From Eledone cirrhosa (Eukaryota), in the NCBI GenBank assembly GCA_964016885.1, contig OZ024743.1, positions 215,822,001-215,886,000 on the forward strand: a stretch of DNA of 64,000 nucleotides, written 5' to 3'. A program made the translations under genes and the position numbers. The notes beneath the pieces are model-generated. The model saw only the letters and a program-made list of their open reading frames with translations. It made no database searches and had not been told where the DNA came from. Numbering within the stretch: position 1 is the stretch's first letter; the number at the start of each line of letters is the position of its first letter. Below, piece by piece: positions 44,088-58,427 of this stretch.

Positions 44088-44088
<1 letters not shown>
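40073..44088 (+). mobile_element. Inverted, rearranged and indel-rich copy of Naiad subfamily 3
   Basis: RT fragment ~40080-40780, scrambled jumps ~40780-40945, then a long copy through GIY-YIG and pLTR to (TA)n at ~44088. Many single-base indels. Confidence 0.85.
43934..44050 (+). ncRNA. Hammerhead ribozyme (inverted copy)
   Basis: Same motif as 35486-35602, on the plus strand. Confidence 0.8.
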
Positions 44089-44158
<70 letters not shown>

Positions 44159-44227
44159 GTGTGTGTATATATATATATGTATATATATATGTGTGTGTGG
44201 GTATATATATATATATGTATATATATA

Positions 44228-44285
<58 letters not shown>

Positions 44286-44312
44286 CATATACACATATGT
44301 ATACACATATAT

Positions 44313-45825: not shown

Positions 45826-45873
<48 letters not shown>

Positions 45874-45930
45874 GACGTAAGATAAGAAACATTTTTTAAA
45901 TTAAAAATTAACTTACTTACTAAAATGTTC

Positions 45931-46012
45931 ACTCCGACCAATTAGTTTCTGTAAGGGAATAAATATAGTTACGTAATGTAACTATAGAGAAGTCCTTACG
46001 TCATCAGCGAGT
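45931..46012 (-). ncRNA. Hammerhead ribozyme of subfamily C, inverted arm
   Basis: ACTCG-CTGATGA-C-GTAAGG..CCTTAC-A-GAAA-CTAATTGG-TC-GGAGT. Confidence 0.75.
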
Positions 46013-46442
46013 CTATTCTCAGCTAAGTTCCCAGGCAATGCGCGGACATATAATCGTTCTGCATCCCCGTGCATAGAACCACAAAGGTACTAAGACATAA
46101 CATATATATTTGCTAGCATGGGTTACATCGGTATATATATGTTGGTAGATATACTAATTCTCTATATTTATCTCAAAATTATCTGTTGAGCGAAACTTGC
46201 CAAATTTACTGCTATGGTTCATGGTAGTAGGTAGGCACTTGTCATAATTTCACCCAAATCCTCACTGATTAAACTCAGTGTCACGTGATTGATTCTTTAG
46301 AATTTGCCACTGACCAAGTAGGCAGTGAATTTTTCAGTGCCCTGGAATTTAGTCCCCGCTAGCTTTATTCCATCCACTGAATTATTATTTTTATATGGGT
46401 TCCTAGTGTCCGCGCATTGCCTGGGAACTTAGCAGAGAATAG

Positions 46443-46524
46443 ACTCCCTGATGACGTAAGGACTTCTATATAGTTACATTACGTAACTATATTTATTCCC
46501 TTACAGAAACTAATTAGTTGGAGT
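46443..46524 (+). ncRNA. Type I hammerhead ribozyme of subfamily C
   Basis: ACTCC-CTGATGA-C-GTAAGG..(TATAGTTAC/GTAACTATA)..CCTTAC-A-GAAA-CTAATTAG-TT-GGAGT. Confidence 0.85.
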
Positions 46525-46692
46525 GAACATTTTAGTAAGTTAATTTTTAATTTTTTTTAATTTTCTTATGTTACGTCTTTCATATAATCGTTCTGCATCC
46601 CCGTGCTTAGAACCACAAAGGTACTGAGACAGAACATATATATTTGCTAGCATGGGTATACATCTGTATACATATATTGGTAGATATATTAA

Positions 46693-47633
<941 letters not shown>

Positions 47634-47775
47634 TTAGGTTAATAGGAGTTAGGTATTGTATACCCGTGTCCCATTAAGGTATTGGCAGCATAATAATTAG
47701 CTCTATGCTTTGGAGCAGAGCCGTATATATGATAAAGAACACAAGAGCGTCTACAACATCAAAATATTTTTATTG

Positions 47776-47820
47776 GCTTACAATGTTTCTTCCTTATGTA
47801 ACCGTAGGATTCGTCAGAGC
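47776..47820 (-). ncRNA. Minimal hammerhead ribozyme
   Basis: GCT-CTGACGA-A-TCCT..AGGA-A-GAAA-CATTG-TA-AGC, then AATAAA. Confidence 0.8.
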
Positions 47821-50040
47821 TATAAAAGGGGTTTGATTGGTGTTATGGACTCTACCAACCAAACATTCAAGAGTAAAGAGAGTAAAGAGCAAAAGTAGGG
47901 GACGATAAGTCTAATTTTGGCGCAGGAGGGTGGGGTGTGGGTCCTTGTTTACTAGCTGTGGTCATATTCATTCCCGGGAGTCGAGTGGTTAGCTGAACCA
48001 TAGACGGGGTGGCGTCGATAGTATGGTGCAGAGGGTCTGCAGAAGCTACACAAACACAATGGGCATACAATATATATATATATAACGGAGGAGAAAGTAC
48101 ATGAGGTAATTAGAAATGGAAAAAGAGTAATAATAATAATCTATAATTAATAATGTATAATAAGGCATGGGGAAGATTACACTATAATAGGTTATAAAAG
48201 TAAGAATAAGGTAAAATATAAAGGAGGATAAAAGTGGAAATAATAAATATAAAAAAATATATATGTAAAAAAAATATATAGAGGATATATAAAGAAATAT
48301 AAGCGAATATTTGGAGGGGAAACCTGAATGTAAAAAAACCGATTTTTTCAAATAAAAATATTATGATTATGGGGGGAGAAAACGGGATAGAGAAATATGA
48401 TCAAATCTGATTAGTTGAGAGAATATAAGATGATAATAGTTATGTCAAGTTTATACATCTTAATAATAAATAATCTGTGTATCAGAGTTACAGAACCTTC
48501 AATTCACTTACAGGTTCAAGCCACGTGGCATAGTCCATTGTTTATCTGTGCGGTCATGCGCGTTTGTTTTTGACACCACAGCAGATGCACAAGGTCGTAA
48601 ATTCCAATGCAGATAGAAATCTATTTTTGCTCACCCGGACATTGACGGAGGATCTAATATTCCTAGTTCAATATGTGTGTGGTGTTATTTTGGTCGCACA
48701 AATCAATCACTTGATTCAATATTATGGAGTATGGTTTTCTGGTCTTCGTAGCAGTGTCAGTGGTTGTATATCTCGAAATCACAAGGATCACAGTACTCCG
48801 GTTTGGTGTGATTATCGGTCATCCAGCTATGTTGTTGGTGGTTGGATTCAATTCTATTAGCCCGAACGTTGAACTTTGGTCTCGATAGAACATTAACGAG
48901 GCAGGGTGAGATCGCATCTGTGGTACAAAACGGTACGCAAGGAAGTTCTTCGTCTTCGTTTCATCCGAGTCCAGCAGTCACGTGCAAGAACCGCTACGTA
49001 GTAATTGTGGGGTTAATCGGTCAAGTCAGCAACTGACAGAAAGTTCTCTTAGGAATTCAGACAGGCATGACAGGCACATTTAGGTCAGCAGCTTCTTTAT
49101 GTGTACGTGTGTCCGACACACACAGACACACATTTATATGTATTTCAACTAAAAAAACTCAATTGATTCCCCCACTGGTACTACAATCGGTCAAGACAGC
49201 AACTGGCCGAAAATTCCCTTAGGAATTCAGACAGGCATGACAGGTACATTTAGGTCAGGAGCTTATTTGTGTGTACGTGTGTCCGATACACACAGACACA
49301 TATCCATATGTATTTCAACTAAAAAAATTCAGTTGATTCGCCTATTGATATTATATCTGTGTTGCTCAGATGTGCATGTTGTGGTGTTCTGGTCGTGCAT
49401 AGCATTCACTGTGTGTTGCCATTACCTTGGAATGTGATGTTATGGTCATCAATAGTCCGACAAGCGCATTTCTCTCTTATATTGCGGAGAATGGTGTTCT
49501 GGTCCTCAGTAAACATTTGGGTCAGCAGGAGGGGTGGTGGTTCTCAGTTTCAACTTCGACAATACATATGTATTACTCTGCATATCGTGCTCCTCTCAAA
49601 GAAGAGTATTATAGGAGGAATTCGTGCCACACACCACATACAGAGAGGATTTCTACAGAAAAGTATACATACATATACACATATATACACACATCATACA
49701 CTCACACATACACACACATACGCATACATACATATATTCACATACATGTCACATATACACATACACACAATATAATACGCATGCATACAATATACATATA
49801 TATATATATATAAAATATACATGCATACAATGCACGCACCCATGCATGCATGCATGCACACACGCACGCAGACACACATACATATGTCTGTGTGTGTGTG
49901 TGAGAGAGAGAAAAAAGGAGAATACACACACACATACACACACACGCAAAGACACCAACCTTGTAGGGGACTGTACCACCCTTAGGGTACCTATCTATCT
50001 GGGTTACGGGTTGGTGGGGGTTGCGTGATATATGTTACGT

Positions 50041-52579
50041 CTATGTGCTAGGTTTAAAATAGAAGAAGGAACTCAGGATTTTGTGTTGGCAAGAGGAGAA
50101 AATTTCCGATTTCCTGTTAAGCAGGTTCAGTTTAGAGTGTATTATGGCATTCCAGTAAACACAGGTCACAACTTCCGCGCTGTGGTCGGTTTGGCGTGGA
50201 TCTAGTAAGCTTCCTCCAAAAAAGTTTGTATGGGGTACTATTATTTTTTTTTTTAAAGGAGATGTATACCGCCAGTGAGGTGGCATTCTTATGTCTATCG
50301 TGTCTAAATGTGTACATGTGCGCGTTAAATCTAGTTTTAAATGTCTTGGAGGTTGCTCCTATATATGTCTTGGTAGAGTTGTGTGTGGTTACGTCACATG
50401 CATATACGATGTTTTTCATGAGGCAATCCCCCCTTAGAGGACAATTACTACTCCGCCTACAATTGCAACTGCGGGTTCGATTAGTTAGCGTACCTCCCGA
50501 AGTTTGGTTACTAGCATTATCATTAGGTGCCTTTATATCATTAGATGGCTCATTGATGCTATTATGTTGCCCATTTTCCAGTGTAGTCGGTTGCTGGTGG
50601 TTAACTGCCATTTTAATTGCTTCGAAACCTTCTTTAGTTTTCCTGATGTTCGTGCGTGCTAGGTGTGATGCGAGGTTAGGTGTGGTCGAATAGGATAATT
50701 TAATTACGTTTTTGTTAATTATGTTGCGATATCTATTGCCTGGTGTGAAGTTTTTTTTCCAATAATGTGAAGAATACTCTGGGGAGGTTAGTGAGGACCT
50801 CAGAGTTAAAAGGTGGGTTAAAATACATGTTTTTCCTTCTTCTATTTTTCTTATCTGTGGGGTGAGTCTCGCTACAGTGCGTACTATTTTGTAGGGTTCC
50901 GTTATTAACGTTAGTGGCGTTGTCTGTTTTGCTTAAGCCCGGATGGTTTATATTCATGGCGTGATCATTTACTGTTTTAGAGTTGTGGTGAGGGACTTTA
51001 GTATTGTCTTTACGTGGTTTACATTTAGCTGGGTTACCGCCATTAGGGTTCTTACTATTATTCTTGCCTCTAAGTTGGTTAGGCTTTGTGGCCAAACTAT
51101 GTGTGATTATGTTGGTAGGTTTCACACTCATGCATTGGGAGTCCTTATGTATATATGATAATCTACTCCCGTAACCAGATTCTGCTAGGGCCTTGTTATA
51201 ATACTCTGCATTGGAGTTGAAGATACTCTGATTACAGGACAGCCTGCTAATTCTATTAGAGACCCCCCTGGGAATAGCGTTTAGGACTGATTTGGGGTGG
51301 TTAGAGCTGGCGTTTACATATGTTAGTCTATCGTTAGGTTTATGGTAGGGTGCAAATGTTTTACTTTCTAGGTCAAGGGTGGCGTCTAGGAAGTTTACTG
51401 TTTTATCATTTGCATCTATGGTAATACTTAGATTAAAGTTTTTAAAGAACCTACGTAACTGTTTCCTAGTTCTTTCTATATTGCACTTTTTATACTCGAG
51501 AGTGAGGAGGGCGTCATCACGGTATAAGGCGCCCTTCAAGTGCGGTAATGTCTCATGTAACTCCTTTAAGAGGTACAATCCTACCAGGTCCGTTACTTGT
51601 GCAGAGTCACTAGATCCCATTGTGATGTTGAAGTTATTGGGCGTATTCTTGCGGGTCCACAATTCATCCTCAAATGTGATTATCGTTTTCCGGGCCGCAA
51701 GAATGACATCAATTTGAGACCTAGTGAGGTCACTTTTCTGTATGGCCATGATTAGGGCCTTATTAAGGAGTATGGGGGAGATTGAGGTGTAGTACGCATC
51801 GATGTCGAATTGTATAAATTTAAGGGATTTATGGTTGCTAAGGCTTGAGAACCATTTCAAAACCTCTTCCGTATTCTCCCATAGCTCTAGATATATTTTC
51901 CTCCTGATGGTGGGTATAACGCCGTCTAAGATGTTCTTACTGATAATTCCTATATCTGACTTCGATGGGCTAATTAATCTAACAGAGGGTTTACTAAGGA
52001 AGTCAGCCTTATGGTCTTTAACGGTGAACCTGGGTTGCCTAGGGGTATATGGTTGGATATACTTTTCCAGACCTAGTTTATCCACTATGGCGCATGCTTC
52101 CTTATTAATTTCATCTATGTTTGCGCTTGTTGTCTTTTTATAGTTTCTATTTAATTCATTGTATATAAACCTACGATACGTATCATAATTTAAGCTATGA
52201 ATATTTCTGGTTTTATCCGAGGTGACCAGGATATCTCTTTTATCGTTAAAGTCCTTAACTAAGGTTTCCAGTTTCATCCGGAATTTGTTGCTATTCCCAA
52301 GGGGGTTTTTAAACTTAATATACCTTACTAGTGATAGGAGGTCATTCTCAAATCTATCTAGCATGGAGTTATGGGGCGGGCTCCTATAGGTTTTAAAACC
52401 GAATTTTTTATTGGGTGACACCGTGGGTGATTTCTTATTTCTCTTATCGAAGTGGAAGTGCGCCATCTAATACGCTTAACGAAGGAGGTGACACTACCTA
52501 TCAGTAATTTCTCATAAGTAGTCCTGGATGGGTTTGGGATGTTCTTGAGTGATATAGGTAGGTAGTCTTGAGTTAGCAT
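50041..52579 (-). pseudogene. Naiad RT-GIY-YIG polyprotein with about three frameshifts
   Basis: MLTQDYLPISLKNIP, FIQFDIDAYYTSI, TMGSSDSAQVTDLVG, LYRDD, NFLDATLDL, CNCRRSSNCPLRGDCL, YIGAT, CDLCLLE, LLNRKSEIFSSCQH. Shifts lie near 52470, in a homopolymer at ~50755 and in the 3' GIY-YIG region. Confidence 0.9.
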
Positions 52580-52802
52580 GCTGCCAATCAATTATAATCA
52601 TACACACAAGGTGGACAGGTTATAAGGATTTCGCTCAACCGGGGGGAGCCGTAGAAATACTTAGGTTAATAGGAGTTAGGTATTGTATACCCGTGTCCCA
52701 TTAAGGTATTGGCAGCATAATAATTAGCTCTATGCTTTGGAGCAGAGCCGTATATATGATAAAGAACACAAGAGCGTCTACAACATCAAAATATTTTTAT
52801 TG

Positions 52803-52847
52803 GCTTACAATGTTTCTTCCTTACGTAACCGTAGGATTCGTCAGAGC
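52803..52847 (-). ncRNA. Minimal hammerhead ribozyme (5' pLTR copy)
   Basis: Same motif as 47776-47820, with a better-paired stem II. Confidence 0.8.
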
Positions 52848-52895
52848 TATAAAAGGGGTTTGATTGGTGTTATGGACTCTCTCTATATATATATA

Positions 52896-53004: not shown

Positions 53005-54745
53005 TATATATTTATAAATTTATAAATTTACAAATCTACAAACTTATACATTTCTGGTTGGTTGGTTGGTTCCACAACCAGATAGTTGTTTATATATAGT
53101 CATAGTCCTTTCCTCACACACTCTGTGACATCTTAAGTGACTGGGGATTCCTTTCTTTGTTTCTGTGCCTTTCCTTTCTTCTGTCCTACGTTATTTTGTT
53201 TCTGTGTGTGTGTTGTGTGCTCAGTTTGCGCATGCGCCACATCCGGGTGTCTGTGTGTGTTTGTGTTCATTTATCTATTTGTTTATTTATTTATTTATTT
53301 ATTTACATGTTGTTGGTTGGTTGTTTGTTCTATATGTGTGTGTGTTGTCATTTTGTCCTTAATTGTAAGTTGTGATGTTGCTGTTCCACTCATATCTTCT
53401 ATTTAATTTTGGTTGTAATTCTTTTATGCTTACTGCCTCTGTAATTTGCCTAAACATTGCATCTTTTCTGTGTGTGGATTCTATTTTTATTTCTATGTTC
53501 TCTAATTTACCCCTGTGTTCTATCTTAGCATGTTGGTAGAGCACAGATGATTCTTTATTATCTTGAAGGTCTCGCCAGTGTTCATTTATTCGTTCCCCTA
53601 TACTACGAACTGTCTCACCTATGTACACTATATTTTTGTTTCTACATTGTCCTTCAGTACATCTTATGCTATACACTACATTTCTAGTTTTTCAGTTAAT
53701 ATGGGGGCTTATTTTACAGGTTATACATTTCTTATCTATACATGAGGGTCTTTGGAACGGGTATGTCTTGCTAATAAGTGTTTTTACGGAGGTACCTGGT
53801 CCTTCTACTATCTTAATATTGAGATTATGTTTATTTAGGGCCCTTCTAAATTTGTAGGCTAGTTCGCCTCTAGGGGTTGTATTGATGAACATTACACTCT
53901 GGTATTTATTGCTATCATACCATGAGTTTATTCTATTGGCCTTGTTCCTAGTTCTTTCTATTCTATTCCAAAAGTTGCTCCTATACAAGGGGCAGGTCCC
54001 ATTTATGTCATTATTTACCATTTTTTCCCATTTGGTTCTGGCTCCTTTATACACTCTGATTCTATCTCTCTGATTGTAGCCAGAGAACTGCATAAGGTGG
54101 ATGAAGTGTTGTATGTGTCTCTCTAGTTCTTCGGGGTTGCACATGCGGGACACATTTCTCATCACCCGCACCAAATCCGCAATCAGTATGTTGATTTTGG
54201 TATGGTCCGAAATGGCCGAGTTTCGGTGGATCAGATGTTTGGAAGTCATGGGTTTGGCATAATGGGAATGGAGGATTTGTTTTTGGTTGTTAATGGTATC
54301 TAACCAGAGCTCTGTGTCTAGTACAGGTAATCGATGGTTGGGGTGTCTACTTGGGTAGTCTATAGTAACACACACAGACACCCGGATGTGGCGCATGCGC
54401 AAACTGAGCACACCACACACACACAGAAACAAAATGGCGTAGGACAGAAGAAAGGAAAGGCACATAAACAAAGAAAGGAATCCCCAGTCACTGAAGAGGT
54501 CACAGAGTGTGTGACGAAAGGACTATGACTATATATAAACAACTATCTGGTTGTGGAACCAACCAACGAACCAGAAATTTATAAATTTGTAAATTTATAA
54601 ATTTATAAATATATAATAAATTGAAGTGAATGCAACTGGTGCGTGTGTTTCTCATTGGCAACATGACCCTCCCAAAGTATAACACTATCGGTTTCAAAAC
54701 ACGATTTCAGATAAAGAATCTTGCTAAACAAATTCAGAAACGAAA
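53000..54745 (-). mobile_element. 5'-truncated PLE (Neptune/Nematis-type) with inverted 3' end (plus arm ~54367-54745)
   Basis: TIDYPSRHPNHRLPVLD..YAKPM..SAI..KINIL and YSIRC..C..YIGET..EH..RQITEA..LN. The UTR ~53000-53260 is inverted at ~54367-54620. Confidence 0.88.
54486..54530 (+). ncRNA. Ultra-minimal hammerhead with 1-nt insertion after A9
   Basis: AGTCA-CTGAAGA-G-GTCACA-GAGTG-TGTGAC-GAAA-GGAC-TA-TGACT. The minus copy at ~53099-53143 has a mutated core (CTTAAGA). Confidence 0.7.
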
Positions 54746-54767
54746 TATATATATATAAATATCTATC

Positions 54768-54897
<130 letters not shown>

Positions 54898-54924
54898 AAT
54901 ATATATACATATATATATAAATAT

Positions 54925-54961
<37 letters not shown>

Positions 54962-54972
54962 AATATATATAC

Positions 54973-55015
<43 letters not shown>

Positions 55016-55031
55016 TTTATATATATACATA

Positions 55032-55064
<33 letters not shown>

Positions 55065-55085
55065 ATATATATATATACCTATATA

Positions 55086-56027
55086 TATTGTTATACTTGG
55101 GGAGGGTCATATTTGCGTTATATTGCCAGAATTAATAACAGAACACAACCACTGTTTCGTTGGTTTTCCCTTCTCGCTGTCTTTTATATCTGCGATCTAA
55201 CTTACTCGGTCCTCAATGTTGCCATTGACTGACCGACGGTCAAACATTATACAGATACAATATAGACACAAACACATATATATATAGTTCACATAATTTA
55301 CATAAGTCTTTCGTTGCACATCTGCAACATCGTCAGTGGTTTTATATTCTTTGTTCCTCCTGTTGCGTTGTATGTCTACGCCATTTTTTATTCAGTCTGT
55401 CTATATATTTATTTATTTATTTGCTTGTTTGTTTATCTTATTTTATTTTGTCTTCTTTGCGCATGCGTTTGCGTGTGTGTATAGTGTTATGTGTGCTGTG
55501 TGACTAGTGTGTATAGTGTTGTGTCTGCTTGGTGACTAGTGTGTGTTTATGTGCTTGTTGTTATTGTGCTTGTGTATTGTGCTTGTTTATCTTATTTTAT
55601 TTTATTTTATTTTATTTATTTACTTATTTATACTTCTCTTAGGTCAGTGTTGTTTGTTTGGGTGTTGTTGTTGTTCCACTTATTCTTTCTGTTTAGCTTC
55701 TAATTTCTATTTCACTGGCCTCTCTGATTTGCCTATCTGCTGGGTCATTCATATGTTTAGATATTATTCTAATTACTATGTTGTCTATGTTACCGTCATG
55801 TTGTTGTCTAGCATGTTCGTATAGTACTGACCCGTTTGTTCGTCCTTTTAGTTCCTCCCAGTGTTGGTCTATCCTTTCACCTATGCTACGAGCTGTCTCA
55901 CCTATGTATGTTGTTGTCATGTTTCTGCAAGTACACTCTGTACATCGTATGCTATAGACTACGTTTCTAGTTTTACAGTTTATCCGGGGGTTCACCTTAC
56001 ATATGATACATTTCCTATTGGTACAGT

Positions 56028-56028
<1 letters not shown>
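55086..56028 (-). mobile_element. 3' fragment of the same PLE family as 21731-23341
   Basis: [36 protein letters not shown], with homologous UTR and the same end point in (TA)n. Confidence 0.85.

Positions 56029-58427
<2,399 letters not shown>

Follow-up and report, generated by a model that had tools for sequence, protein, structure and literature searches.

The non-coding repeat at positions 45868-46696 of the window (the 64,000-nucleotide stretch of Eledone cirrhosa DNA analysed here) is probably a non-autonomous, retrozyme-like Penelope-like element (PLE), likely copied in trans by a Neptune-type reverse transcriptase (RT)/endonuclease that would use predicted hairpins, one behind each of two internal start sites. 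The window carried two copies of the repeat, A at 45868-46696 and B at 19580-20669. Locus A is a single insertion of the ~510-570-nt repeat. A tandem layout was rejected for this locus, which consisted of an inverted tail-less arm and a direct arm with a ~113-nt tail, within (TA)n. The direct arm comprised one 534-nt period plus the repeated 113-nt tail, with (TA)n flanking the insertion on one side and (TC)n(TA)n on the other. Since there was one hammerhead per strand, release of a monomer by locus A alone is impossible. The features of the locus and the related elements in the window were as follows.

45826-45869: (TA)n flank at the tail-less end (273/291 arm ends in the family lie in (TA)n/(TC)n)
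45868-46048, minus: inverted, 5'-truncated, tail-less arm; hammerhead core begins at 46007 (minus)
46050-46162, plus: tail of the truncated upstream unit, 113 nt
46057-46079, plus: putative start-site hairpin 1, TTC-T[..]A-TA-GAAC, 9 nt behind end site 1
46103-46154, plus: long tail hairpin, including the distal hairpin of the sequence-only reading; second copy at 46637-46690
46172-46191, plus: putative start-site hairpin 2, which in locus A departs by one mutated base from the consensus CTC-C[..]G-TY-GAGC
46199-46236, plus: hairpin H1, of varying length
46241-46251, plus: strand with predicted pairing to 46086-46096 in the tail; alignment pairs 86-461 and 92-455 covary here
46255-46271, plus: putative anti-ribozyme strand; the consensus fold places it in a helix across the cleavage site
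46278-46303, plus: block 1 of the sequence-only reading; E-box-like TCACGTGA at 46281-46288, a promoter candidate only
46400-46427, plus: hairpin H4, with block 2 of that reading (46405-46424)
46443-46524, plus: type I hammerhead, recognised by sequence
46584-46696, plus: terminal tail, end site 1 to end site 2
46697-47632: (TC)n(TA)n flank at the tailed end
19580-20669: subfamily B insertion, tailed arm on minus and tail-less arm on plus
35220-44291: Neptune-type family 1, autonomous, with inverted arms and a ~113-nt tail; hairpins on minus at 39019 and 38904
47630-52880, minus: Neptune-type family 2, autonomous; hairpins on minus at 52747 and 52648

The repeat family and its insertions

A genome search with a hammerhead-core pattern returned 8,527 exact matches against 1 for the control, and narrower hammerhead patterns returned 2,192 and 398. 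We built 18 subfamily consensuses from 188 of 295 copies, with A, B and one long array subsampled, and rejected the description of locus A as one of two subfamilies; a second set, drawn from 385 of 446 copies, comprised 16 consensuses. Mean divergence was 2.2% for A (35 full copies) and 1.4% for B (29 full copies). Tandem non-coding units, each with a type I hammerhead, were found in the family but not at locus A, and arrays reached 16 pure units (locus L157). The periods first read from the window, 534 nt for A and about 564 nt for the B copy, held for these copies but were not fixed family-wide, with 529-542 nt in A, 554-571 nt in B (one of 534 nt) and 511-532 nt in the other subfamilies. 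No ORF was found in the repeat units or arrays, and in particular not the RT and GIY-YIG ORF of an autonomous PLE. A plant LTR retrozyme (type III hammerhead in LTRs, PBS, PPT) was rejected, as the hammerhead has type I topology and there was no LTR pair. Pattern searches for deeper relatives, allowing other stem lengths, another stem III or a short stem II, recovered only damaged copies and unrelated matches. Contigs from four sequencing runs, compared over part of the unit, contained the family for organism A and numbered only 1-2, of low depth, for organisms B and C; they were left out of the analysis. Our literature search found no description of the family or of the start-site hairpin; the family or the hammerhead variant may be recorded in sources beyond its scope, namely Repbase, Dfam, subscription papers or the supplementary files to PMC4209133, PMC8557442, PMC7229834 and the 2026 preprint (10.64898/2026.07.22.740005).

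Insertion anatomy was scored on 312 arms. Among the 291 arms with a visible 3' end, 136 ended at site 1 and 141 at site 2, ~110 nt further on. An inverted partner was present for 232 of 298 arms, and 84 of 98 inverted pairs combined one tailed with one tail-less arm. Insertion was biased towards microsatellites, 273 of the 291 visible ends adjoining (TA)n or (TC)n, and the check for target-site duplications found microsatellite in the flanks. The insertions thus had the anatomy of a non-autonomous PLE: an inverted 5'-truncated arm, a tail on one end and partial tandems. The available text of PMC8557442 describes the inverted truncated arm, one-end tail and (TA)n for PLE insertions, and that of PMC11167929 shows the tail to be the stretch between two internal RT start sites, with RNA 3' of the sites needed. 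"Retrozyme" fits the repeat loosely; its insertion anatomy is that of PLE target-primed reverse transcription.

Several junctions had further peculiarities. (TC)n of variable length often followed tailed arms before (TA)n, for example at window 46697-46771; it matched the template's own TCTCTATAT and possibly reflects stutter at the RT start. Locus L154 (5410-7953) was a composite, a repeat arm lying back to back with the 3' arm of a Neptune element and each ending in (TA)n, and could represent one event that used two templates. At L152 (5833-6791), a Neptune endonuclease region that stops short of its last motif was joined in the same direction to a truncated unit.

Neptune-type elements and a putative start-site hairpin

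The autonomous Neptune-type elements in the window were assigned to this clade from the CxC..C linker, as in the available text of PMC8557442, and the motifs seen. The Neptune-1 protein had the CxC..C linker, GIY-YIG and CCHH, and all 150 scored matches of this family were 99-100% identical. At least 150 near-identical matches, many with 785-codon open frames, indicate from sequence that Neptune-1 is likely active. Its arms had two ends ~113 nt apart (14 and 12 of the 27 arms that end), so that the repeat and Neptune-1 have the same ~113-nt tail. The copy at 35220-44291 was an inverted tandem whose hammerhead carried A.A at the base of a ~80-nt stem II. Neptune-2 had hammerheads at 47817 and 52844 (minus) and a tail of ~97 nt, and a third Neptune-type family at 2100-5170 had a hammerhead at 2180 (minus) and a 102-nt tail. 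In the ATT run at the 3' end of this third family, loci L358 and L374 carried a SINE-like insert resembling window 20860-21040. A different PLE protein lay at window 53692-56157. Pfam named nothing on five Neptune ORF pieces except a spurious D5_N match, and the Atlas gave RT/GIY-YIG/HTH_animal clusters, which we take as a lead only.

The repeat shares a short hairpin with these elements. The form CTC-C[..]G-TY-GAGC was first noticed behind three end sites, and the motif was defined after seeing them. Its wider form, YTC-Y[..]R-TN-GARC, was present at a distance of 6-11 nt from the junction behind all six end sites, two each in the repeat, Neptune-1 and Neptune-2 (the Neptune-2 ends rest on one and two arms plus the window), and its paired positions switched between C-G and T-A together. 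In the repeat, hairpin 1 was present in all 15 subfamily consensuses that cover the tail, its second copy in locus A (46591-46613) being mutated, and hairpin 2 in 15 of the 17 that cover its site, the remaining two carrying an ambiguous base inside. In a held-out test on the family at window 2180 (Neptune-type ORF in L397; ends 102 nt apart, 31 arms), the motif was present behind both sites, site 2 resting on one read-through locus, L397. In a second test family, site 1 fitted the motif only if a 58-nt insert was allowed, and no read-through was available for site 2. The background was 115 motif starts in 218,970 nt, or 0.0037 per 7-nt window. Another PLE family in the window lacked the motif in two short stretches behind its ends. 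Searching the genome with a pattern for hairpin 2 gave 3,679 matches, and all of the first 100 listed were the repeat.

The sequence-only reading had proposed two other stretches, described as invariant, as promoter or RT-recognition signals. They were indeed identical in the window's A and B copies, but full matches occurred in only 4 of 17 subfamilies for the 26-mer and 4 of 18 for the 20-mer. Across the subfamily consensuses, 22 of 26 columns of the first block and 11 of 20 of the second were invariant, against a background of 253 of 529 columns. The 20-mer was mostly a hairpin with a covarying closing pair (alignment columns 244-261). From its sequence, the hairpin behind the two 3' end sites is a better candidate for an RT start signal than either block, and the E-box-like core TGTCACGTG is the sole part of the blocks that remains a promoter candidate.

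A profile of the repeat found no match in the window's Neptune pLTRs, with which it had only the short hairpin in common. As no autonomous pLTR homologous to the unit was found among the families sampled, we infer the helper at the level of the clade only. Neptune-like ORF pieces lay near units at 25 of 200 loci in mixed orientations, which may reflect shared (TA)n targets, and at two of the loci studied (L152 and L154) a unit was joined to such pieces.

Copying by a Neptune-type enzyme would begin with transcription of a tandem source. The Neptune protein would bind the folded tail and 5' domain and cut both strands of (TA)n, and each strand would then prime synthesis from one of the two sites, so that a pair of divergent arms, both 5'-truncated, would result. 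We also considered a bolder proposal, tentative and somewhat short of an even chance, that Neptune-type RTs choose both start sites by a duplicated conserved RNA element (a 3-bp stem with a 2-nt 3' bulge and a variable hairpin, placed 6-11 nt downstream), and that the repeat is a minimal circular parasite that retained two copies of this element and a switch that hides the ribozyme and keeps its cut ends together for ligation.

The hammerhead and the form of the template

At locus A, stem I is ACTCC/GGAGT, the core CTGATGA lies at 46448-54 and GAAA at 46506-09, an unpaired C and A sit at the base of stem II, and stem II contains an internal loop and a hairpin. The palindromic CTAATTAG follows, with the GUU predicted to be cut after 46519. 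By sequence, this is a type I hammerhead with the CUGANGA and GAAA core, an NUH site and stems I-III; the G10.1-C11.1 pair does not directly adjoin the core, as C.A or A.A sits between the core and the G-C pair. CTGATGA and GAAACTAATTAGTT were invariant in 18 of 18 consensuses (7/7 and 14/14 columns, against the same background of 253/529). Rfam at the gathering threshold gave no match anywhere in the window, and at E<=10 around locus A only microsatellite-driven or chance matches, with no hammerhead among them. Judged by sequence, the motif is of the PLE type, with an extra base after A9 and a palindromic helix III. The PLE minimal hammerheads in the available text of PMC4209133 share with it the extra base after A9, the G-C first pair and the palindromic helix III (dimer), and the U.U mismatch at the stem II base of axolotl HHR_Amex2 is a precedent for its mismatch. 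The repeat differs from both in the extra unpaired A before GAAA (C.A or A.A), a ~35-nt structured insert in stem II and a U at the cleavage site. The window's Neptune hammerheads had an unpaired N and A at the stem II base, as in the repeat.

Several subfamilies had C-UUCG-G as the inner loop of stem II, A and B had UUACG/UUGCG, and one subfamily had mostly lost this inner hairpin. GTAAGT, which resembles a splice donor, lay ~15 nt 3' of the predicted cleavage site and was invariant in 18 of 18 consensuses; no conserved splice acceptor was evident to match it. PLEs keep introns in the 5' UTR. Further hammerhead-like cores were found in the window at 21976(-)/23037(+), 54491(+)/55336(-), 29051(+)/29269(-) and 8562(-), mostly as inverted pairs, with U.U at the stem II base in the pair 29051/29269.

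The local minimum-energy fold of the ribozyme region mispaired the core, and in predicted folds of 13 consensus circles stem I had a probability below 0.25 in 11. The anti-ribozyme strand formed at a probability of at least 0.8 in 7 of the 13 (0.09 in A and 0.04 in B), and its pairing contained a single covarying pair, tied to a change in stem I in one clade (E=0.14). These folds provide a lead to an anti-ribozyme switch that would hide the cleavage site. The strand at 46241-46251 paired with the tail at a predicted probability above 0.9 in 10 of the 13 circles, A and B not being among them.

The hammerhead would cut multimers as a dimer through its palindromic stem III. What then serves as template is where the classic non-LTR retrozyme cycle competes, in which monomers are cut from tandem transcripts and closed by ligation into circles that the RT runs round. 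We consider this cycle possible, at rather less than even chances; it can coexist with copying by a Neptune-type enzyme, as it concerns the form of the template. Consistent with it are the arrays of up to 16 pure units (L157), and units or opposite arms of one insertion were often closer to each other than to other loci (1.9% vs 4.8% at L018, 0.3% vs 1.3% at L159), but within-array distance was about equal to between-locus distance at L035, L036, L038, L052 and L147. Each of the 13 consensus circles folded better than shuffled versions of itself (12 per circle; z -2.3 to -10), and a strand that would hold both cut ends together was predicted in 6-7 of them; a linear multimer accounts for the same data. 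Circles have been shown for coral, mussel and axolotl repeats (available text of PMC7229834), whereas in the available accounts the hammerhead was dispensable for insertion by an anole PLE in vitro (PMC11167929) and 8 of 9 Xenopus dimers did not cleave (2026 preprint).

Base changes across the unit and relation to known elements

The sequence-only reading had noted compensatory changes between the two window copies. Those in stem II (GTAAGG/CCTTAC at 46456-61/46499-504 vs GCAATG/CATTGC in B at 20526/20569) and in the inner hairpin (TATAGTT/AACTATA in A vs GACAGTT/AACTGTC in B) were confirmed. The change in the distal hairpin was also real, but its proposed 2-nt loop is impossible and we redrew it with an ATCT loop, as GTATAC-ATCT-GTATAC in A and GCGTGC-ATCT-GTGCGC in B; it forms the tip of a ~50-nt tail hairpin, whose base changes pass through G.U states. 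The A/B differences were fixed in the two consensuses, built from 35 A and 29 B copies, and so do not stem from noise in single copies. Among subfamilies, all four Watson-Crick pairs were seen at position 2 of stem II and two at position 5.

The further claim, that RNA structure is selected across the monomer, held in aggregate, but no single pair outside the hammerhead reached E<0.05 (best 0.064). Our home-made test modelled on R-scape (G-test with APC; 60 tree-based nulls) gave E<0.05 for 2 of the 154 proposed pairs, each in hammerhead stem II or its insert. In an all-pairs version, none had E<1. With 18 related consensuses as input, the power of the test is low. In an aggregate test with each null refolded, 17 pairs outside the ribozyme, some of them in gappy columns, had two Watson-Crick types, against null maxima of 13 (n=25) and 7 (n=26). 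In a leave-clade-out test (two seeds, 400 nulls), the structure from 8 consensuses was applied to the other 8, and 20 and 18 pair-breaking changes were observed where uniform placement predicts ~45 (p=0.0025). With rates preserved in the null, changes left the position paired in a fraction of 0.53 vs 0.40 (p 0.015-0.018) and of 0.65 vs 0.45-0.48 (p=0.0025). Same-branch double changes outside the ribozyme were few (1 and 2-3; p 0.02-0.48). The leave-clade-out result indicates that structure outside the ribozyme is constrained, mainly via G.U intermediates, although the demonstration does not extend to individual pairs.

Template-switch repair of quasi-palindromes, or shared ancestry, could produce such changes outside the ribozyme with no selection on RNA. 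Compatible with this are the lack of an individually significant pair outside the hammerhead and the nature of the double changes, most of which were single events on an 18-tip tree, many in local hairpins. We regard it as unlikely: the long-range pairs 86-461 and 92-455 also covaried, G.U was kept (280 G.U vs 39 A.C cells, a count biased by the folding method), the plus strand folded better than the minus strand (-145.9 vs -127.9), and the leave-clade-out result held under the column-rate-preserving null. Covariation in PLE hammerhead families was already noted (PMC4209133, available text), and the changes first read from the window are by themselves expected for such elements, and ordinary inside the ribozyme.

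PLE copies are mostly 5'-truncated, and the unit could accordingly be only the pLTR of an autonomous PLE sampled in such copies, as the joins to Neptune ORF pieces at L152 and L154 and a weak trace like the Neptune N-terminus would allow; this is most improbable, since read-through always enters the next unit, the arrays have no ORF and the two ORF-unit junctions lie at different unit positions in different orientations. The N-terminal vestige (YCLFNTP vs YSLKNIP) was discounted as too short.

With metazoan non-LTR retrozymes (Cervera and de la Pena 2020, PMC7229834, and Li et al. 2026, available text) the repeat has in common non-coding tandem type I hammerhead units, thousands of copies and a proposed dependence on PLEs. 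Unlike them, it has a PLE-type rather than a canonical hammerhead, and most of its insertions are inverted arm pairs with a tail. Its units are 510-570 nt long, against 150-450 (PMC7229834) and 51-972 (2026 preprint) in the available texts, and its ribozyme is predicted to be blocked by self-pairing in about half of the subfamilies, which the available part of PMC7229834 gives, among animals, only for some mussel circles. With the Neptune-clade PLEs in the available text of PMC8557442 it shares the inverted 5'-truncated arm, one-end tail, (TA)n target and hammerhead, but it has no ORF and no nucleotide homology to the Neptune pLTRs sampled, and its tail is ~110 nt rather than the 30-40 bp described there. 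The Poseidon element PAc of Anolis (PMC11167929, available text) also has two internal RT start sites that define the tail and requires RNA 3' of them, but belongs to a different clade, and its signal is described as an AC-rich stem-loop.

Dependence of retrozymes on PLEs has been proposed from co-occurrence and pLTR similarity (2026 preprint; PMC7229834), and the available text of the preprint, drawing on vertebrates, insects and corals, argues that the retrozymes of animals are PLEs of the non-autonomous kind. New here is a putative start-site hairpin common to a non-coding repeat with the full PLE signature and to young, intact Neptune families. The shared hairpin makes both the retrozyme-PLE dependence and the start-site rule directly testable with a protein, a ~250-nt RNA and specific mutations. 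If recognition of the duplicated element is borne out, it would tie an animal retrozyme to its helper RT at the level of sequence and make available a start signal, portable in nature, for an RT related to telomerase.
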